Made by a program: the position numbers and the translations under genes. The notes beneath the pieces are model-generated. The model was not told the DNA's origin. It did not search any database and saw nothing but the letters and a program-made list of their open reading frames with translations. A DNA stretch of 64,000 bases from a bacterium (GTDB lineage Bacteria; Patescibacteriota; Microgenomatia; Woykebacterales; RBG-16-39-9b), in assembly GCA_030704665.1 (NCBI GenBank), contig JAUYID010000009.1, positions 729,702 to 793,701 on the forward strand, in the 5' to 3' direction. Position 1 is the first letter of the stretch. Every line of letters begins with the position of its first letter. Below are positions 34,140 to 43,498 of the stretch, in pieces.

Positions 34140-34724
34140 TTACGGACTTACTGTGTTTGTTCCACCACTATTGGCAACACCAACTGAAGTGGTCGCTCCA
34201 CCAGTCTCAACTGTACCACTACCTGTGTTCTTGTTCGCCTTGTTCTTGCCAGTTTTGGCTTTGACTTTGGCTTTGTTTTTCACCTTGAGATTGTTGCTCT
34301 GCCCTACCGTGTTAGTTTTTGTACTGCTGGCAGTTGTGGTGTTGACGGAACCTGCTCCAGTAGTCTCATTTGTGGCCGCATTGTTTACGTCACACTCGCA
34401 CGTGCAACCGTTGCTAGCTGTATTTGAACTTCCGGAATTGACGATCGAAACAGTTGCGCTGGCATCCCCAGTCGTCACCGAACCATCACCAGTGTTCTGG
34501 CTGGCGCTATTACCACCAGTGTTAGCGTTAACACTAATATCGTTGTTGATATCGACAACGTTGCTCTGCCCAATGACAGAAGAACAAACGCTTGTAGCGA
34601 TTGCAGTGTTGACTGATCCAGCACCGGTGTTTGAGTTGCTAGCGGTGTTGTCAGCCAAGGCGGGCACTACTGCTAGAGCAACTCCGGCTAAACCCAAGCC
34701 AGGAATTGTGAAAAGTCTTTTCAT
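34140..34724 (-). CDS. secreted N/T/G/S-rich repeat protein
   Basis: Signal peptide MKRLFTIPGLGLAGVALAVVPALADNTASNSNTG, with loose similarity to the SipW-cognate signal of the 40535 gene. Repeated N-T-G-x-G-S-V motifs. Confidence 0.5.
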   Translation of the reverse strand: MKRLFTIPGLGLAGVALAVVPALADNTASNSNTGAGSVNTAIATSVCSSVIGQSNVVDINNDISVNANTGGNSASQNTGDGSVTTGDASATVSIVNSGSSNTASNGCTCECDVNNAATNETTGAGSVNTTTASSTKTNTVGQSNNLKVKNKAKVKAKTGKNKANKNTGSGTVETGGATTSVGVANSGGTNTVSP

Positions 34725-35007: not shown

Positions 35008-35868
35008 CTAAAGTGCCCTGCGAGCTTCGCTCTTAGGATTTGGGGGGGTTTGCTTTTCTTCAAATTCCTCTTTGCATTCTTTTGAACAGAAATAATAGGT
35101 CTTGATAGAAGTAACTAGTTGTGGGGTGGTCGCTGTCTTTTCCACTCTGGTGCCACAGTTTGGATCGTGCTCGAGTATTTCGATTTCTTTGAAACGTCCG
35201 TCTTCGAGCCAAAGGATGCGGTCAGCAATTTCTTTGAGCCTTTCGTCATGGCTAACCACCACGACGGTTTTGCCCATATTTTTGGCCACACGAGACAGAA
35301 GCCTCATCACCTCTTTTCCTTTTTTAGAATCAAGGTTGGCGGTTGGTTCGTCAGCAAGGATGAGCTTGGGATCGTTGGTCAGGGCTCGAGCGATAGAAAC
35401 TCTCTGCTGCTCGCCTCCAGAAAGTTTTCTGGGACGAAAGTTTCTTCTCTGAGTCAGGTCAAAAGTTTCCAAAAGACCGTTTACTTTTTGTCTAGCTAGT
35501 CTCTTTGGAACACGGGCCAGGAGCAAAGGCACAAGAACATTTTCAAAAACAGTCAGGTTTTCTAGCAAATTAAAGGATTGAAAAATAAAACCGATTTTAG
35601 CTTGACGGATTTTTGTTAGTGTCCGATCGTCAGCATCAGCAACTTCTTCTCCATCAATTTTGACTGATCCTTGGCTAGGTCTCAGCATCGCTCCAGCAAT
35701 AGTAATAAAAGTAGTTTTACCTGATCCGGAGGGGCCCATGATCAGAACAACTTCACCTGCCCAAGCTTCAAAATTGATGTCATCTACTGCTCGAACTTGG
35801 ATCGTGCCGAAGCCAAAAATTTTGGTTACATTTTTCAGTTCTAAAGTTGGTTTTTCTGGCAACCTCAT
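35008..35868 (-). CDS. ABC transporter ATP-binding protein (MacB/LolD-like) with C-terminal YHS metal-binding domain
   Basis: Walker [18 protein letters not shown] and ILADEPT. The C-terminal DPNCGTRVE...TYYFCSKECKEEF is YHS-type. Confidence 0.8.
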   Translation of the reverse strand: MRLPEKPTLELKNVTKIFGFGTIQVRAVDDINFEAWAGEVVLIMGPSGSGKTTFITIAGAMLRPSQGSVKIDGEEVADADDRTLTKIRQAKIGFIFQSFNLLENLTVFENVLVPLLLARVPKRLARQKVNGLLETFDLTQRRNFRPRKLSGGEQQRVSIARALTNDPKLILADEPTANLDSKKGKEVMRLLSRVAKNMGKTVVVVSHDERLKEIADRILWLEDGRFKEIEILEHDPNCGTRVEKTATTPQLVTSIKTYYFCSKECKEEFEEKQTPPNPKSEARRAL

Positions 35869-36968
35869 GATCGAAACACCTCAGCTGGGTCAATATGAAT
35901 TATCCGCCGTACTGGTATGTAAGAAGCAAAAATACTCATTGTATTGGCCAAAACAAAAACATTGACCAAATCTACCCCTCTCGTAGTCGTGACAAAAACA
36001 GGAACGAAGTTCGGAATAATCCAAAGTAGCAAGAAAGTTAGACCAACCCCGACGAAATAACCAATTATTCCTGAAACGAAGGACTGCTGAAAGATAATCT
36101 GATAAATTTGCAGGTTTGACCCACCAATTGCCTTCAAAACGCCAAATTCCCGCGCTTTTTCGATAGTAGCTGTGTAAATAGTTAGCCCAATCACGGCGGT
36201 TCCCACTAAAACACTGATCAGAACTAAGACTGCAATGATTGGAACAAAAACTTCGTCAATTAGGCGTCGGTTTTTATCGACGAATTCTTCCCTATCCAAA
36301 GCATCCACACCACCAATTTGGTTGATCTCGTCCCTTACTTCGTCGAGTTTGCCAGAGTCAGTCTTTACCAAGTAAAAGTTGGTAAAGCCTTCTGTGCCAA
36401 AAAGTTTAATCGCTTCTTTTTGGTCGATAAAGGAGAATTGAAAAAGAAACATGTTGGCCCCGTCAGCAATTCCCACTACTTTGAGGCTCGTCCCAAAGAT
36501 TTCGACGAATTCTCCTATTTCCAATTTTTTGTTTTTGGCTAGCACTTTATCTACCACTATTTCTCCTTCGTCCGGTACTTTCTTCCCTGAGAGCATTTTC
36601 TTTGGTCCAGAAATTGGCTTTTCTGGATCAAAACCAACGATATAGGTGTTGACGTCTTTATTTTTCAGGGAAAAACTGACTGGCTTACCCACAAATTTAT
36701 TTACTTGGGACACTCCGGGAAGTGTCTTTATTTTTAGCCCAACTGAGTCTGGAATGAGTGAAGCACTACTGGTGATATCAGCCGAGCCTGATTGAGTAAC
36801 CCAAAGGTCAGTATCAATACCCCGGATATACTCGGTTGCCTTAACACGCCACCCTTGATAAAGGGAGAGAATGATCAAAATAAGCATGACAGAAAAAGCG
36901 ACACCACCTACAGAGATTGCGAAACGGGTTTTTTCTGCAAAAAGATTTCTTAGGGCAATTGAAACCAT
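35865..36968 (-). CDS. ABC transporter permease, FtsX/MacB family
   Basis: 367 aa. TM1, then a large extracytoplasmic domain, then 3 TM helices. Overlaps the ATPase gene start. Confidence 0.75.
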   Translation of the reverse strand: MVSIALRNLFAEKTRFAISVGGVAFSVMLILIILSLYQGWRVKATEYIRGIDTDLWVTQSGSADITSSASLIPDSVGLKIKTLPGVSQVNKFVGKPVSFSLKNKDVNTYIVGFDPEKPISGPKKMLSGKKVPDEGEIVVDKVLAKNKKLEIGEFVEIFGTSLKVVGIADGANMFLFQFSFIDQKEAIKLFGTEGFTNFYLVKTDSGKLDEVRDEINQIGGVDALDREEFVDKNRRLIDEVFVPIIAVLVLISVLVGTAVIGLTIYTATIEKAREFGVLKAIGGSNLQIYQIIFQQSFVSGIIGYFVGVGLTFLLLWIIPNFVPVFVTTTRGVDLVNVFVLANTMSIFASYIPVRRIIHIDPAEVFRS

Positions 36969-37034: not shown

Positions 37035-39245
37035 CTAGCTAGGGGTGCCTAAACTTAGGTTGCCTTCGTGATCAAGTTTTTTCCACTCTACCGGAGCACC
37101 CTTTAGCAAGGCCCAAAGCGCCTTAAAAAGAGAGATATAAAGAATCGGCTGATAATAAAGTCTTTGCAAGGGCATGAGAATCAAAACCCAGGCAGACTCT
37201 CTCTCAAAAGCAAAGGCAACAATACCAAGAATCAACCTCGTCAAAAGATAGAGACTGAGGTAAATAAGAACGAGCTTGGCGGAAATGAAAAAGAAAGCAA
37301 AGATAGCAAAAAGATCCATCAAGGGCGATAAAAGCATGATCGGGATCTGGACAAAAATTGTAAAGGGCAGAACGAGCCAACCCAAAAAGCCATGGCGGCG
37401 TCTAAAAATTAGGTTGCTGTGAGCCGAAAAGGTCTGAAAGACCCCAAAGGTCCAACGAAACCTTTGGCGGATGAGATCTGAGATTTTGGTCGGCGCCTCG
37501 GTATAGGAAACTGCTTCTTTGTCATAAACTACTCTGAAACCGGCCCTTAAAAGCCGTATCGTCAACTCTGCATCTTCTGTCAGGGTCCTGCCTGAATAAC
37601 CCCCGATTTTTTTCACTACACTACTTCTCCACGCTCCTAGAGCCCCTGGAACCACCAAAATCGAGTTCAGCGCGCTGTAGCCGTTTCGTTCTAGGTTCAG
37701 GTTCATGGTGTACTCAATTGCCTGCAACTTACCGAGGATAGTTTCTCGGTTGCCGACTTTTACATTGCCTGCCACAGCGCCAACTTTGGGATCAGCAAAA
37801 AATTTTACTAAGCTCCCAAGGGCATTTTTGTCGAGATGAGTATCAGCATCAAGAGCGACAAAAACACTTGATCGAACAAACCTCAAGCCATAGTTTAAAG
37901 CAGAAAATTTTCCTCCGTTTTCTTTGGCAAGAACCTTAACTCGGCTGTCTTTCTCAAACTTTTTGGCCAGCCTATTGGTATTGTCCGTGGATCCATCATC
38001 AATGATGAAAAGCTTGAATTTTTTGTAGTTCGAGGCTAGAACCGAATGGATTGTAGCAGCAATCGCTTTCTCTTCGTTGTAAGCCGGTACCAAGACGCTA
38101 ATTGAAGGTCGAAAATTTCCCTTTGCCAAAGTCTTTTTGAAACGAAGCGAGCGGTATGATTCTAAGTTCGCCAAAATGATCAGGAACAAACTGTAAGTCA
38201 GAGTAAAACCGAGGCCAATCAAAAAGACCGGGTCCAGAAGTCTCGGAGACGCCTTGAAGAATTTATACCCTACAACCAAAAGATTACTCGAAACCGACTC
38301 TCTCAATGAGACCCGCGGCATGGTAGCTTTTCCGGACAAAGCAGCCAAAGTTTGAAAACTATAGCCTTGGGATTTGTAATACTTGATGATCTCAGGAAGA
38401 GCAAGAACGGTGTTGCGCCGATCACCTCCGGCATCGTGCAAAAGCAAAACTACTGGGCCTTCAGTACTGGTAGTACTGTTTTGGACGATTTTCTTGATGT
38501 TCCTCTCCTGCCAGTCATTAGAGTCAAGAGTCGGGGTTGATACCAAGTAACCTTTGTCCAAGGCAAAAGTGGTAAGGATCAAACTATCCATCGAAATTTC
38601 GTTCTCTTGACCCCAATATGGGTTGCGAAACAATTTGGGACTAATACCTGTCGCCTGCTCGATCAAATTTTGATTGAAATCAATCTCAAAATTAACTCTA
38701 TTCAAGCGCTCCATAGGGTTTTGACCAATAGCAACGTGAGAGAAAGTGTGATTTCCCAACTCAAATCCGTTTTCAACAATTTTTTTAACCAATTCCGGAT
38801 ATTTCAAAACCTGACTCCCAACAACAAAAAATGTTGCGGAAACATTTTCTTTCTTGAGTATTTCAAGAATTTTTGGAGTGTAGTTCGGGTCTGGACCATC
38901 GTCAAATGACAAAACTACTGTTTTTTCTTTGTTCGATTTTTCCCTGTTGATTGAGTAGGTATTTTTTTCTTGGTCCGCGTTTATTTGAATAATTGTCCCA
39001 GAACCGTGGACCGAAATTTCCCCCGGTGTTTTTTTACTAATTTTGTCTATCACATCTCGGTTTGTTTCCCCTTGGATTTTCGTTAGTTTATTTCTAGCTC
39101 CTCCAAAAAACTCCCAGAGTACCAAACCGGCCACAAGAGCAAGAGCAAAACCCAAGACCAAAAAAGCCAAGCAAAAAGTCTTCCAGCGTCGACCGGACTC
39201 GTCAAGAAAGACAAATTTTTGATTTGACAATACACTTTTTGCCAT
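37035..39245 (-). CDS. bifunctional polysaccharide deacetylase (NodB/CE4) and family-2 processive glycosyltransferase (PgaC/IcaA-like)
   Basis: CE4 motifs VVLSFDDGPDP...GNHTFSHV. GT2 region LVPAYNEE...IIDDGSTDNT and Q(R)xRW (QRFRWTFG). Multiple TM helices at both ends. Confidence 0.8.
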   Translation of the reverse strand: MAKSVLSNQKFVFLDESGRRWKTFCLAFLVLGFALALVAGLVLWEFFGGARNKLTKIQGETNRDVIDKISKKTPGEISVHGSGTIIQINADQEKNTYSINREKSNKEKTVVLSFDDGPDPNYTPKILEILKKENVSATFFVVGSQVLKYPELVKKIVENGFELGNHTFSHVAIGQNPMERLNRVNFEIDFNQNLIEQATGISPKLFRNPYWGQENEISMDSLILTTFALDKGYLVSTPTLDSNDWQERNIKKIVQNSTTSTEGPVVLLLHDAGGDRRNTVLALPEIIKYYKSQGYSFQTLAALSGKATMPRVSLRESVSSNLLVVGYKFFKASPRLLDPVFLIGLGFTLTYSLFLIILANLESYRSLRFKKTLAKGNFRPSISVLVPAYNEEKAIAATIHSVLASNYKKFKLFIIDDGSTDNTNRLAKKFEKDSRVKVLAKENGGKFSALNYGLRFVRSSVFVALDADTHLDKNALGSLVKFFADPKVGAVAGNVKVGNRETILGKLQAIEYTMNLNLERNGYSALNSILVVPGALGAWRSSVVKKIGGYSGRTLTEDAELTIRLLRAGFRVVYDKEAVSYTEAPTKISDLIRQRFRWTFGVFQTFSAHSNLIFRRRHGFLGWLVLPFTIFVQIPIMLLSPLMDLFAIFAFFFISAKLVLIYLSLYLLTRLILGIVAFAFERESAWVLILMPLQRLYYQPILYISLFKALWALLKGAPVEWKKLDHEGNLSLGTPS

Positions 39246-39361
39246 AAAAACAACTATTTAACTGGTAACTAGGCAGAAATGATCTCTTCTCCGTAGGAGG
39301 CAAAGTCATTATAAACCTAATTAAACTGAAATTCTACTGGAAAAATAGTTTGATTTTCAGC

Positions 39362-40507
39362 TCAGAACACCTCACAATTTTGGTTGTTTTCTCCGTTCAA
39401 GCAGGTGTCTGTTTGTGCTCCACCATCGTTTTTATCTGAACCATTCCCTGCATCAAGAAAATCCTCCCCAGAACCTCCGGAAAGCCCGTCGCTACCTGGT
39501 CCACCAAACAATTTATCGTTGCCACTGCTGCCATTTAGACTATCGGAGCCTTCGGCACCAAACAATTCATCCGCACCAGAGCCCGCTTGCAGCGAATCAC
39601 TGTCCTGACCACCAAGGAGAATGTCCTGACCGGGCCCACCTTTCAACTTATCACCGCCGTCTCCACCAACAAGGCAATCGTTACCACCTTTACCCTCAAT
39701 AAGATCTCCCCCACCAAAACCAAAAATCAAGTCGTTGCCGGCAGTTCCGATCAGCCTATCGGAGGCCTCAGTTCCCAAAATAGGCTCTCCGGAAAACTCA
39801 ATATCACTACATTCTAAAGGAGCACTCGAAATTTCACCAGTTGAAAGTCGATTACTCTCTAAAATTACACTACTTTTGAAGAGACTAAAGGCAGGAACAG
39901 CAAAGAGCAAAAAAATAAGTACAAGAGCCGGCGCAGTTAAAACTCTGGTATTTAGTTTCTCCTTTTTCTTTTTTTTCATTCTCTTCATTTCCTCGGCAAT
40001 AACCAAAAATTCATGGAGAATAACAAAACTAGCTGGAATGATTACAAGAATAAATAGCCCGGGGAAGCTGCCAAGAAAGGCAGCCAACACTCCCAAAAGG
40101 GGAGCTGAAAAAACGACTTTTCCAAAAATATTTCTGTCTCGGATCAGTGTCGAATCTGGGCCTTGATTAGCATCTCCCTTGGTTTGATAATAAGTGATTC
40201 CATCTTTCTCAACTATCTTGTTAATTCTGTGAGTAATTAAACTCTGCGTTCCTGCCGACTGAAAGCTGACGACTTCCCCTGTTTCATAGTTTTTGTTTTT
40301 ATCACTGAAAATACTTTTTTCTGGAAAAACAACCAAAAGTGAATTTATCGGAAGGTTTGGACTCATACTTCCTGTTTTTACCACCAACAATCGAACCCAG
40401 TTTAAAGCAGAGAGGGTAAGTACCAGGGTGATGGTAAAAATAAAAACTATGAAAACTGAGTTAAAGGCTTTTACAATCATAAACTCTTTACCCGGCTGGT
40501 TCCGCAA
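39362..40507 (-). CDS. SipW-type (ER/archaeal-type) signal peptidase I fused to C-terminal RTX repeats
   Basis: Three S26 boxes: nucleophile VKTGSMSPNLPINSLLVV, His box LITHRI, and TKGDANQGPD. Three TM helices. About 10 GGxGxDxLx nonapeptides (GTAGNDLIFGFGGGDLIEGKGGNDCLVGGDGGDKL...). Confidence 0.7.
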   Translation of the reverse strand: MRNQPGKEFMIVKAFNSVFIVFIFTITLVLTLSALNWVRLLVVKTGSMSPNLPINSLLVVFPEKSIFSDKNKNYETGEVVSFQSAGTQSLITHRINKIVEKDGITYYQTKGDANQGPDSTLIRDRNIFGKVVFSAPLLGVLAAFLGSFPGLFILVIIPASFVILHEFLVIAEEMKRMKKKKKEKLNTRVLTAPALVLIFLLFAVPAFSLFKSSVILESNRLSTGEISSAPLECSDIEFSGEPILGTEASDRLIGTAGNDLIFGFGGGDLIEGKGGNDCLVGGDGGDKLKGGPGQDILLGGQDSDSLQAGSGADELFGAEGSDSLNGSSGNDKLFGGPGSDGLSGGSGEDFLDAGNGSDKNDGGAQTDTCLNGENNQNCEVF

Positions 40508-40534
40508 CCGCGGAACCAGCCTAAAATCTAGACA

Positions 40535-41074
40535 TTAAGGTACGACTTGGGTTCCAGTAAAGACTACATCATACTGAATACTCTTGTTGGAGGCACTGTT
40601 TGTCGCTGAACCACTGAGGGTTTGTTTGATGTTGCATCCGACTTCTGCGTCAGGAGCAATAGTTACAATAGTTGTCCCAGGAAAAGGGGCGTCCAAAGTC
40701 CCACTCACTACCCCGCTACCACAATCTAGTGCAACTGTTACCAGACTTGGATCAAGGGCACCCGAGTCGATAGAGGTTGCGGCAGTGATATCAAGACTAA
40801 TCGCACTGTCACTGTTGTTTTTCAGACAAAATGGTAATACCTCTTCCTGCCCAGGGGCCAAATCGTCTGAATCAATCCCCGGAGTTGAGCTTGCAAAACT
40901 ACCACACGCTGAACCAGTCCATTCCGCTATTTGCAGATCGGCATCACCAGTACTTAAGGTGTTGTTGGATAGAGTCGCAGTGTCAGTAAAAACAGCTAAA
41001 GTGATTCCCACAACCGCAGCTAGGGTTGCGGCAATGGTGAGAAAACCAAAAGCTACTCTTTTGTTTATTGCCAT
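40535..41074 (-). CDS. TasA/camelysin-like protein with SipW-cognate signal peptide
   Basis: N-terminus MAINKRVAFGFLTIAATLAAVVGITLAVFTDTATLSNNTLSTG matches the SipW-cognate signal class (A-x-F-T/N-D motif). 179 aa. Confidence 0.6.
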   Translation of the reverse strand: MAINKRVAFGFLTIAATLAAVVGITLAVFTDTATLSNNTLSTGDADLQIAEWTGSACGSFASSTPGIDSDDLAPGQEEVLPFCLKNNSDSAISLDITAATSIDSGALDPSLVTVALDCGSGVVSGTLDAPFPGTTIVTIAPDAEVGCNIKQTLSGSATNSASNKSIQYDVVFTGTQVVP

Positions 41075-41326
41075 TTATTTCTCACCTCCTCTCCCCTTCA
41101 ACCAATTTCTTTTTGAAAATTGGCATAAAAAAACCAACTGTCCTGTTTCGGCTCGTTGGTTACTATTTTTTTGTAAGCAGATATTTTGGACAGTCATGGC
41201 AGCAAACTTTTGGCAGGATTTTTAATATAGGCCTCTCCTTGGCGGTCGGCTGTACAGTTTTTACTTAACGATCAGGAAATTTTGAATGCGAAGTGAGTAT
41301 AAACTATCGCAAAGTGGAGGTGTCAA
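41075..41326 (-). promoter_or_regulatory. promoter (TTGACA-17-TTTATA) plus conserved 5' leader with attenuator hairpin (copy B)
   Basis: -35 at 41321-41326 and -10 at 41298-41303 (minus strand). GGCGGTCGGCT lies exactly 177 nt from the start codon in both copies. Confidence 0.45.
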
Positions 41327-41382
41327 CTAGGTCTATTTGTATCTTTTTGCTTGGATGAGTGCTGAGAGGATTTTGGTTTAAA

Positions 41383-42465
41383 CTAGGTGCACGTCTTACC
41401 GTGGGCAGCTGTTACAAAACCTTGGTCAGTGGAGTTTATGTAGCCATCAAGGTTCAAGTCATATCTCTTTCTGTAATAATTCCCGGAGGAGCTTTTAGTT
41501 CCCTTGTAGTCTGCTCCAATGTATTTAGCCAAAAGTAACTGATCAGCAGAGGTTACTTTTTTGTCACTATTGAAGTCTATTGGCCAAGCGCTTGATCCAC
41601 AGGCTGCTGTCGGACTGGTCCCCATATGTGACTCCGCCGCATCTCCAAAGCTATCTCCATCACTATCTTTTTTGAGAGTCCTGGCTTCTTTAGTTACTGA
41701 TGTATTGTTATTACTTGTATCGTCCACACCTACTCTAATTTGATACTTCGAACTATCCCGTAAATTCGACCACGTTTGAGTTGTCTCTAATGAAAGGGGC
41801 GAACAGATCCCCGAACTTCCTCCTCCGGTTGGACCATTAGGAGGATTGTAGTCCTCATAATACTTTGGATCAACAAGGTCAGAAGAAGAGGTACAAACAT
41901 AATAACCAGAAATCCCAACGTTATCTGTCGCCGACCATTTCCAAGTAATCGAGTTGGTAGTGATATTTGTGGCGTTTACCGTCAGAACAGGTGGGGTAGT
42001 ATCCTTTGAAAGAACCGTAAAAGCCTGGGTTGAAGCTGTGGTACATCCCCCAGTTACACAAGAAACGGTCCAATAGTAGGTGGTGCCAACTGTCAATTGG
42101 CTTGGTGGGGTTCCGTAGCTTGCACTACTCCAACCACCAAAGTTTGTCGAGTTGACTCCGCTGCTACCATACACATCCTTGTACCAAGATCCTGAGTAAA
42201 AATTCCCATTATAGGCCCGGAGATAAACTCGATATTTTGTGGTGTAGCAGTAACAGTTCCAACTAAAGGTTGGCGTAGTACTGTAGGTACTGTAGGCTGG
42301 AGTTAAGCTTGAAGGTTTTCCAGTTGCGGCCTGAGGAGTAAGTGAGCGCACACCATAAACTGCAAAAACAGTAATCGGTATTGAAATGAGAATAATGAGA
42401 GAGGCAAGAATTCCTAGGTTTATGCTTTTGAGAGTAAATTTGTGATCTTCTTGTTCATCGTTCAT
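41383..42465 (-). CDS. secreted protein with fibronectin-III-like region and C-terminal dockerin-like repeats
   Basis: N-terminal TM/signal. Dockerin-type D-x-N-x-D-G motifs (DLNLDGYINSTD; DFNSDKKVTSADQLLL). Confidence 0.55.
   Translation of the reverse strand: MNDEQEDHKFTLKSINLGILASLIILISIPITVFAVYGVRSLTPQAATGKPSSLTPAYSTYSTTPTFSWNCYCYTTKYRVYLRAYNGNFYSGSWYKDVYGSSGVNSTNFGGWSSASYGTPPSQLTVGTTYYWTVSCVTGGCTTASTQAFTVLSKDTTPPVLTVNATNITTNSITWKWSATDNVGISGYYVCTSSSDLVDPKYYEDYNPPNGPTGGGSSGICSPLSLETTQTWSNLRDSSKYQIRVGVDDTSNNNTSVTKEARTLKKDSDGDSFGDAAESHMGTSPTAACGSSAWPIDFNSDKKVTSADQLLLAKYIGADYKGTKSSSGNYYRKRYDLNLDGYINSTDQGFVTAAHGKTCT
42242..42374. repeat. 133-bp exact direct repeat, copy 1 (inside the 41383 gene)
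   Basis: Identical to 43257-43389. Flanking sequence continues at lower identity. Confidence 0.8.
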
Positions 42466-42472
42466 TTTAAAT

Positions 42473-43498
42473 TCACTGGCATCTCTGTCCTACATACTTC
42501 GCAAGAGCTTCCGAATCTTTCGAGTTCAAAACATTATCACCTGGGTAAAATTCATATCTTCTTATATTCGCTGGTGGGCTAGCTATTGCCTTGTATAACA
42601 AAAACTGGTCTGCTGAGGAAACAACTTTGTCCCCATTCAAGTCTGGTGGCCAAGCAGAAGCTCCACCACATTTTAAGTTAGGATTGGTACCCATCCAGAT
42701 TTCAACCCCGTTTAACCACCCATCACCATCACTGTCTATATCATCTGTCCTAATACCTCCTGACCTGCCACCCACATTTCCTGCTGCATCATAAGCTCTG
42801 ATATTGTAGTAATAAAGTGTATTCGGAGTAAGGTTGTTGTAGGTATATGACGTTATACCTGACCCCAAAGGAATAATCCCTGTGGAAGTCTCAGTAGTAA
42901 CTCCTAAAGAGATGTCTTGGCGAACAACTCCAACATTATCATAAGTACTCCAGTAAAAAGTAAGTGAAGTTGGCTTGGTCAGGGTTGTACCCATAGAAAC
43001 TTCAGGTGGCGAGGTGTCTTTCGTAAGGACGGTGAATGCCTGAGTTGCTGAAGTCTTACACCCACCAGTCACACAACTAACCGCCCAATAATAAGTTTTT
43101 CCAGCGGTGAGAGAAGCTGGGGCCGATTTGTAATTGTTGTTGATCCAGCCGCCAAAGATAGTAGAATTTTTTCCGCTCGTCCCAAAAACTTCTTTGTACC
43201 AAGACCCAGCATAGAAATTGCCATCTCCTTCACGAAGATAAACTCTATATTTGGTCGTGTAGCAGTAACAGTTCCAACTAAAGGTTGGCGTAGTACTGTA
43301 GGTACTGTAGGCTGGAGTTAAGCTTGAAGGTTTTCCAGTTGCGGCCTGAGGAGTAAGTGAGCGCACACCATAAACTGCAAAAACAGTAACGGGAATGGCG
43401 GCAAAGATAACCAAAACACCAACCAAAGCCAGCTTCGTTGATCGAGTCTGGTGCTCAAATCTTTCCAACAAACGGTTGATTGTTTTGGCAGGATTCAT
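42473..43498 (-). CDS. paralog of the 41383 gene (FN3-like plus dockerin-like)
   Basis: N-terminal approx 150 aa are near-identical to the neighbour (VFAVYGVRSLTPQAATGKPSSLTPAYSTYSTTPTFSWNCYCYTTKY). DLNGDKVVSSADQFLL dockerin motif. Confidence 0.55.
   Translation of the reverse strand: MNPAKTINRLLERFEHQTRSTKLALVGVLVIFAAIPVTVFAVYGVRSLTPQAATGKPSSLTPAYSTYSTTPTFSWNCYCYTTKYRVYLREGDGNFYAGSWYKEVFGTSGKNSTIFGGWINNNYKSAPASLTAGKTYYWAVSCVTGGCKTSATQAFTVLTKDTSPPEVSMGTTLTKPTSLTFYWSTYDNVGVVRQDISLGVTTETSTGIIPLGSGITSYTYNNLTPNTLYYYNIRAYDAAGNVGGRSGGIRTDDIDSDGDGWLNGVEIWMGTNPNLKCGGASAWPPDLNGDKVVSSADQFLLYKAIASPPANIRRYEFYPGDNVLNSKDSEALAKYVGQRCQ
43257..43389. repeat. 133-bp exact direct repeat, copy 2 (inside the 42473 gene)
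   Basis: Identical to 42242-42374. Confidence 0.8.

Follow-up and report, generated by a model that had tools for sequence, protein, structure and literature searches.

Why should a signal peptidase carry a calcium-binding RTX domain behind its membrane helices, next to a gene for a putative fibre subunit? The question is raised by a 64,000-nucleotide stretch of DNA (the window; positions 729,702 to 793,701 of contig JAUYID010000009.1, assembly GCA_030704665.1) from a bacterium of the lineage Woykebacterales (Patescibacteriota). A gene on its minus strand (39362-40480) encodes an archaeal-type signal peptidase fused to an RTX beta-roll, and directly upstream, on the same strand, lies a gene for a TasA-superfamily subunit of 179 aa (40535-41074). 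We propose that the fusion gene encodes a peptidase and its own substrate in one chain. The third hydrophobic helix of the protein and the strand that follows it are likely to constitute an internal cognate-signal element of the type found at the N-terminus of TasA-like subunits, and the RTX domain would then be a fused passenger, i.e. a substrate of the peptidase and not its accessory. The complete chain of events, including cleavage and docking to a fibre, falls a little short of even odds. As a compromise between this core and the full chain, we give the peptidase-substrate fusion, which is the best explanation overall, a probability of roughly 0.55.

The first-pass annotation of this DNA described an open reading frame (ORF) of 381 aa. 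This is indeed the maximal ORF (39362-40507, minus strand), with a TTG start at 40507 placed inside a 12-bp hairpin, but the ATG at 40480 is the likely start, and the residue numbering used throughout refers to the resulting 372-aa form. The 372-aa product is identical to NCBI protein P0001, annotated only as 'signal peptidase I', and the same continuous ORF is carried by an independent read-level assembly. The latter observation bears on the possibility that the fusion is an artefact, in which a sipW gene and a separate secreted RTX gene, starting at M165 or M168, were joined by a frameshift or an assembly error. The junction (39960-39990, the KKKKKEK stretch) does contain an A8 homopolymer and two in-frame ATG codons (M165 and M168) with GAGG upstream. 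However, apart from the agreement of the two assemblies, the homologues P0002, P0003 and P0007 are fused without any Met or A-run at the junction, and dozens of 50%-identity clusters show the fusion, which leaves an error of this kind scarcely credible. An internal start at M165/M168 was considered as a conserved feature and rejected, since the homologues have no Met there; internal initiation or slippage at the A8/ATG junction is conceivable, but not conserved in the homologues.

The signal peptidase domain (aa 1-164; 39989-40480, minus strand) is composed of a transmembrane (TM) helix (TM1, aa 2-25), a catalytic domain and TM2, which begins at about residue 139. It matches TIGR02228, the model of archaeal-type signal peptidase I, with 72.7 bits against a cutoff of 51.85 (75.6 bits for the isolated domain), and contains all three boxes on which its earlier assignment to the SipW class had been based, namely GSMSP (aa 37-41), THRI (aa 83-86) and KGDANQGPD (aa 101-109). 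Residues S38, H84, D103 and D109 are invariant among the 67 homologues in alignment A6, as well as in alignments A1 and A5. The Ser nucleophile and the conserved Asp of the GDAN...D box are thus present, and the general base is His, not Lys. The assignment to this class holds, with the catalytic Ser and His aligning, while Pfam Peptidase_S26 remained below threshold (17.4 vs 22.9). The bacterial P-type model TIGR02227 (18 vs 47 bits) and the Bacillus SipW equivalog model NF046067 (84.6 vs a cutoff of 190) both failed. Judged by its class and context, the enzyme is SipW-like without being a SipW orthologue, and it would be a putative peptidase of TasA-type signals. In the AlphaFold2 (AF2) model, whose mean predicted local distance difference test score (pLDDT) is 88.6, the peptidase domain reaches about 90 or more, and the top Foldseek matches of the model are human SEC11C and SEC11A (7p2q and 7p2p; 22% identity, TM-score 0.61 on the target).

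Three long hydrophobic helices (aa 2-25, 139-171 and 178-201) were predicted by AF2, which agrees with the number of TM helices reported at first pass. According to the proposed topology, TM1 would cross the membrane from the inside to the outside, the catalytic domain would lie outside, TM2 would return the chain to the cytoplasm, where the Lys/Arg-rich loop MKRMKKKKKEKLN (aa 165-177; 39950-39988, minus strand) would remain, and the chain would re-enter the membrane through the internal signal. The AF2 helices, combined with the positive-inside rule for the Lys-rich loop, place the cleavage site, the strand and the beta-roll on the side of the catalytic domain, and the extracytoplasmic position originally ascribed to the roll is therefore upheld. 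The third helix, in turn, appears to be the internal cognate signal with its strand, not a plain TM segment, and as such it would be misread by topology predictors.

This interpretation depends on the nature of the upstream subunit. Its gene had been described as encoding a protein with a SipW-cognate signal, and this description proved correct: the quoted N-terminus is exact, TIGR04088 recognises the N-terminal 60 aa with 21.5 bits (cutoff 19; 17.8 bits for the whole protein), and the protein has a TasA-superfamily fold. The SipW-type signal has a predicted cleavage site between A27 and V28 (...GITLA|VFTDTATLSNNTLSTGD), so that VFTDTATLSNNTLSTGD forms the N-terminal strand, while residues from about 33 to 177 form a beta-sandwich. 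PF12389 scored 21.0 bits against a cutoff of 22.5, and the 63%-identical orthologue P0240 scored 24.9. A sequence search of the subunit family against the PDB yielded only weak collagen-adhesin (Cna) matches and no TasA, and a structural search was therefore required. It revealed a TasA/AbpA-like beta-sandwich, with AbpA (top), TasA and FimA, all of them subunits of donor-strand fibres, as its best matches. The N-terminus of the subunit is disordered in AF2, as is the strand segment of the fusion protein. TasA homologues have already been noted in Patescibacteria (PMC9245690), and TasA polymerises by donor-strand exchange of its mature N-terminus (PMC9674648); by analogy, we propose that the subunit may polymerise in the same way.

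The corresponding element of the fusion protein has the layout of a signal. TM2 is followed by MKRMKKKKKEK, a hydrophobic core of about 14 residues, AVPAFS, and then the strand LFKSSVILESNRLSTGE (aa 200-216; 39833-39883, minus strand), which can also be given as SLFKSSVILESNRLSTGE or, in alignments A1 and A5, as AFSLFKSSVILESNRLSTGE and represents a degenerate TasA-type motif. The Lys-rich loop matches the n-region of an internal signal, and in the homologues TM3 is likewise preceded by K/R-rich loops. TM3 itself, TRVLTAPALVLIFLLFAVPAFS (aa 178-199; 39884-39949, minus strand), identified from the AF2 model and by positional homology, would comprise the h- and c-regions, the latter with Pro at -4 and small residues at -1 and -3. 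Cleavage is predicted either at S199|L200, in register with TasA, or at A197|F198. When the upstream strand AVFTDTATLSNNTLSTGD was compared with all 47,964 six-frame ORF positions of the window, its top non-self match was the internal strand of the fusion protein (score 38, the next best being 25). In P0003, a full-length Woykebacteria homologue with 40% identity, the aligned segment GTAAYFSDTANSTNNIFTTAE passes TIGR04088 with 24.7 bits (cutoff 19), and a hidden Markov model (HMM) built from standalone TasA-like N-termini alone detects both P0003 (E 1e-4) and P0007 (E 0.03). The MAFFT alignments (A1 and A5) showed that the 18-residue strand is gap-free in all fusions, with an invariant N210 and a conserved aromatic residue (F201). 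Among 42 internal signals, position -1 is occupied by A, S or G in 33 and position -3 by T, S, G, A or V in 36, with a helix-breaker at -4/-5, giving the consensus T-x-A|[FY]FSD.

Several observations weigh against this reading of the protein encoded in the window. The motif inside it is a degenerate one that has Ser at the position of Asp (FKS in place of F[ST]D). TIGR04088 misses the internal segment (aa 165-226), the HMM of standalone N-termini reaches only E about 4, and an HMM of canonical internal elements gives no match to it; a weak match to the signal region of NF042931 (E 0.007-0.08) was detected. As the motif is missed by all models, the claim for this protein rests on its position in the alignment and its similarity to the neighbouring subunit, and this clade, to which P0001, P0002, P0008 and P0252 belong, may have lost or changed its cleavage or docking. 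The AF2 confidence for TM3 is moderate (pLDDT 60-69 over helix 178-201), and that for the strand segment (aa 204-216) is below 50, so that the latter appears disordered between the confidently predicted peptidase and beta-roll domains. Moreover, the motif could serve solely as a recognition element of the peptidase and not as a fibre strand, and cleavage in cis would leave the signal peptide covalently attached to the enzyme.

The degeneracy of the motif slightly favours the main rival explanation, namely that the chain is not cleaved at all. TM3 would then be a permanent anchor, and the strand and RTX domain would stay on the peptidase, where the strand holds the basal subunit and the fibre is thereby fixed to the membrane at the site of its assembly; in a variant of this explanation the strand would be a pseudo-substrate occupying the groove of the peptidase. 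Such a tether would be in line with the reported membrane association of TapA (PMC10151520) and with the modelled topology, which would set the strand beside the active site, and monoderm-like cells of the candidate phyla radiation (CPR) would presumably need a membrane anchor for their fibres. The element nevertheless retains the marks of a cleavable signal. Small residues at -1 and -3 and the helix-breaker at -4/-5 are kept across the 42 internal signals, and the copy described here reads A-F-S| with Pro at -4. The h-region, of about 14 residues, is short, as is typical of signal peptides, and the canonical internal signals of the homologues are indistinguishable from cleaved N-terminal ones. 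An uncleaved tether is, in our opinion, unlikely, and we retain the view that TM3 and the strand form a signal preceding a substrate.

This view receives further support from the relatives of the protein. Comparison of aa 1-216 with 1.84 billion cluster representatives identified 12,232 relatives, of which the best 150 were analysed. More than half of these (86/150) extend over 105 residues past the GDAN box, and a canonical TM3 + strand element was recognised by HMM in 45, with many others appearing degenerate by eye; most other proteins closely related to the peptidase domain are plain ones with a length of 170-200 aa. Pfam analysis of 67 extended representatives revealed a Lamin-tail domain (LTD) in 31 and RTX in only 3. 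The remaining passengers include a domain of about 170 aa (L018, L038, L042), full TasA-like domains (L016, L075) and an acidic tail (L008, WWE3), while the shortest, of only about 40 residues, consist of the strand alone (P0195, P0185, P0192, P0139, L034). Since the passenger is interchangeable, the RTX domain cannot be integral to the function of the peptidase and behaves as a fused substrate.

The suggestion made at first pass, that the RTX domain docks the enzyme to the envelope or makes processing Ca-dependent, with TM3 as a mere third anchor, is therefore very unlikely. It is true that the roll is extracytoplasmic and confidently folded, with its Ca-binding Asp residues intact, and that Ca-dependent assembly is known in the TasA superfamily (AbpX; preprint 10.64898/2026.01.04.697558). 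In most near relatives of the peptidase, however, RTX is absent and LTD, other domains or almost nothing is found in its place, and the conserved part is not the passenger but TM3 with the next 18 residues, read here as the cognate signal and strand.

The same fusion, together with the neighbouring gene, does occur in related genomes: full-length homologues of the fusion protein share 51% (P0002), 40% (P0003) and 32% (P0007) identity with it, and of 15 fused loci, 11 have a separate gene for a TasA-like protein directly upstream in the same orientation. On the sequence evidence, the peptidase-signal-passenger layout is widespread in Patescibacteria and its RTX form is rare. Two actinobacterial proteins, L075 (Solirubrobacterales) and L061 (Frankiales), also have a SipW-class peptidase joined to a third TM helix with a strand-like motif and to a passenger of the TasA-like or fn3 type, which indicates that the fusion is not confined to Patescibacteria. 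Patescibacteria-like peptidase/TasA modules were also found on records (L009-L011, L015-L017, L023, L034) titled 'uncultured Gammaproteobacteria' or 'Pseudomonadales' (TPA_asm metagenome-assembled genomes) and, in one case, 'Nanoarchaeia'; these titles probably mislabel the taxonomy. The architecture had initially been regarded as undescribed. No description of a signal peptidase fused to a passenger bearing its cognate signal was found in the open-access literature, and to this extent the statement stands; the general fusion is, however, common in sequence databases, where it has apparently passed unremarked, and only the RTX form is rare.

The RTX passenger (aa 221-372; 39365-39820, minus strand), defined by PF00353, AF2 and Foldseek, is a genuine one, with 72.3 bits for PF00353 against a cutoff of 23. 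It contains 14 nonapeptides, not about ten as first estimated, in an unbroken 9-residue register (aa 236-361); position 6 is Asp in 14/14, and U8 is kept in 12/14. The roll is flanked by an N-cap (PLEC..IEF.GEPI.GT) and a C-cap (DTCLNGENNQNCE), with a DTC..NCE motif at the end, and four conserved Cys residues (224, 269, 360 and 369) cap it. AF2 predicts a parallel beta-roll with a strand every 9 residues (pLDDT 94-98 over aa 221-360, above 95 in the roll), and the RTX matches found by Foldseek include the RTX domains of CyaA (6sus) and of lipases (2z8x). The only ABC systems revealed by a scan of the neighbourhood are of the MacB/FtsX type, and the RTX domain is preceded by a Sec-type internal signal.

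Unfused Woykebacteria proteins carry this RTX module as well. P0022 (L006, 6001-7044) and its relatives P0004-P0006, P0010, P0011, P0014, P0017, P0020 and P0044 have an ordinary signal peptide and, joined to this Cys-capped module, an acceptor beta-sandwich of the TasA-like type from which the N-terminal strand is missing (hhalign match of these acceptor-RTX proteins: probability 95%, E 2.8e-8). Their architecture is thus the converse of the strand-only RTX passenger, and in L006 the P0022 gene lies directly 3' of a peptidase fusion with a non-RTX passenger. The existence of these converse proteins implies that the RTX module may sit at, and decorate, either end of a fibre.

The passenger might also have nothing to do with fibres, i.e. 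the RTX protein would be cleaved and released as a Ca-binding surface protein or adhesin, and the motif would be a recognition element alone. The great diversity of passengers, including LTD, fn3 and acidic tails, is compatible with this explanation, and so is the occurrence of the same RTX module on unrelated N-terminal domains in the CPR proteins P0033 and P0040. Against it stands the way in which the internal strand tracks the strand of the cognate subunit locus by locus: over 11 loci, internal strands share on average 8.4 of 18 positions with the TasA-like strand of their own locus and 6.1 with those of other loci (permutation p ~1e-4), and the locus described here ranks 1/11. As this comparison used hand-registered 18-mers from related loci, which are not phylogenetically independent, it is supportive rather than decisive. 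In addition, the short-tail variants (P0195, P0185, P0192, P0139, L034) keep the strand without any passenger to deliver, the pairing with a TasA-like subunit gene is tight, and the same region is the complementing one in both TasA and TapA (PMC9674648, PMC10151520). A fibre-independent substrate is therefore improbable, and we return to a strand-bearing passenger that acts on the fibre.

The proposed sequence of events is as follows. The peptidase, acting in cis or in trans, would cut at about S199|L200 and free a protein of about 17 kDa composed of an N-terminal strand and the beta-roll, without an acceptor beta-sandwich. By analogy with TapA of B. subtilis, the freed strand would come to lie in the groove of the upstream-encoded TasA-like subunit, so that the passenger would nucleate or cap the fibre and place a rigid beta-roll at one of its ends as an anchor or adhesin. 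Folding of the roll would require extracellular Ca. The fusion would also fix the accessory:peptidase ratio at 1:1, and a hairpin that follows the subunit gene may help to keep the subunit in excess. More tentatively, with a probability somewhat under even, the fused enzymes of Patescibacteria may form a dedicated class of peptidases joined to their own first substrate, each of which processes itself and thereby releases or presents one strand-bearing accessory per fibre; under this 'one peptidase, one fibre' scheme the retained signal helix may gate further turnover.

The first-pass annotation compared the locus with tapA-sipW-tasA. The pairing of a subunit with a peptidase justifies this comparison as an analogy: both systems have a dedicated ER-type peptidase, a TasA-family subunit with an A-x-F-x-D...N signal/strand and a strand-bearing accessory. 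A TapA homologue, however, is lacking, as no TapA-named family was found among the Pfam and NCBIfam matches of the window proteins; the passenger is the candidate TapA analogue. In B. subtilis the tapA and sipW reading frames overlap, and TapA is processed by SipW, membrane-associated and as scarce as SipW (PMC10151520). TapA provides a TasA-like N-terminal strand with which filaments start, and its residues 44-57 alone are enough for biofilms to form (PMC10151520); the short-tail fusion variants would be the natural equivalent of such a minimal TapA. In contrast to tapA-sipW-tasA, the accessory is here fused behind the peptidase, the order is subunit and then peptidase::accessory, and the signal is internal, as the third TM helix. 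The globular part also differs, being an RTX beta-roll and not the Ig domain of TapA.

Donor-strand subunits are likewise shared with the AbpA/AbpB bundling pili and with AbpX, for which no peptidase-accessory fusion has been reported. The accessory protein AbpB has been proposed as the source of the first complementing strand and as the carrier of distal adhesin domains (PMC9245690), and AbpX has a dedicated adjacent TIGR02228 peptidase and assembles in a Ca-dependent manner (preprint 10.64898/2026.01.04.697558); its calcium, however, is bound at the strand-groove interface and not in an RTX domain. SipA/LepA of S. pyogenes (PDB 4n31), a structural match of the fusion model, has a signal-peptidase fold, is encoded in a pilus operon and is needed for fibre polymerisation, but it is a non-catalytic P-type protein of a sortase pilus system, whereas the fusion is of the ER type and keeps Ser, His and Asp. 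In chaperone-usher systems, FimH and PapH are also specialised subunits which, having no donor strand or no usable groove, cap one end of a donor-strand fibre. By this likeness, the strand-only RTX passenger would close the fibre at the end with the open groove and the acceptor-RTX Woykebacteria proteins at the other, although FimH and PapH show no homology to the proteins discussed here, are secreted by another route and carry no fused processing enzyme.

Finally, the GGxGxDxUx beta-roll is common to the RTX proteins exported by type I secretion systems (T1SS) of Gram-negative bacteria, such as CyaA, serralysins and lipases. Ca-triggered folding outside the cell is established for RTX domains generally, and probably applies here too. 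Unlike the T1SS substrates, the passenger would be exported by way of the Sec-type internal signal that precedes it and not through a C-terminal T1SS signal, and conserved pairs of Cys residues cap its roll.

The hairpin mentioned above is a stem-loop (40494-40521, minus strand; GGCTGGTTCCGC-ggtt-GCGGAACCAGCC) located between the stop codon of the subunit gene and the ATG of the peptidase gene. It has a perfect, GC-rich 12-bp stem without a T-tract, with a centroid energy of -26.1 kcal/mol (z = -4.1), and none of 200 shuffled sequences folded equally well. Significant hairpins occur at the same junction in three of four homologous loci, i.e. L002 (z -6.2), L001 (z -3.2) and L005 (z -6.5), while the fold at the L006 junction is not significant (z -1.3). 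This recurrence suggests differential expression of the subunit and the peptidase; the hairpin may be a partial terminator or a transcript stabiliser that would set a high subunit:peptidase ratio. Promoter and terminator scans over 38900-41500 gave background-level signals only.

The peptidase fusion is followed, on the same strand, by several further genes. The first (37035-39245), 116 bp downstream, encodes a protein of 736 aa in which a polysaccharide deacetylase is joined to a PgaC/IcaA-like family-2 glycosyltransferase (GT2). Next (35008-36968) is a MacB/FtsX-type ABC permease paired with an ATPase that bears a C-terminal YHS/TRASH-like metal-binding domain (YHS, aa 235-273). The last (34140-34724) is a secreted protein of 194 aa composed of 'NTG..S.N' repeats, with an ordinary ALA|DN signal and no Pfam or NCBIfam match. 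Homologues of the repeat protein are encoded at or near the fused-peptidase loci L001/L014, L042, L038 and L011, the L002 copy being truncated, and the protein may be a further component of a surface module. The L002 module is flanked by a GT2-GH26 fusion which, together with the deacetylase-GT2 neighbour, suggests a combined fibre and exopolysaccharide 'matrix' locus; the junction hairpins and downstream neighbours, taken together, likewise suggest a surface-matrix locus. On the other side, two tandem paralogues (41383-42465 and 42473-43498, minus strand) have near-identical N-terminal regions (a TM segment followed by AVYGVRSLTPQAATGKPSSLTPAYSTYSTTPTFSWNCYCYTTKYRVYL) and carry fn3-like and dockerin-like/TSP3 Ca-binding segments. 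SipW-type signals considered for this pair (FAVYGVRSLTPQAATG) found no support, and the paralogues were dropped from the system.

Among the biofilm and surface filaments of bacteria and archaea, TasA/SipW-type fibres form a major class, and their nucleation and anchoring are debated even for TapA of B. subtilis. That the peptidase and the accessory occur naturally as one protein is a direct genetic argument for their joint action at the membrane and, if our interpretation is true, the fusion would represent a built-in stoichiometric assembly device and the first natural fusion of a signal peptidase with its substrate to be described. The subunit and the peptidase::accessory form a compact two-gene system for reconstituting fibre initiation, and the proteins concerned are at present labelled only as 'signal peptidase I', which is of importance for their annotation. 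Patescibacteria are ultra-small episymbionts with poorly understood attachment structures, and the variable passengers (RTX, Lamin-tail and others) could provide the ends with which their fibres adhere or are anchored.

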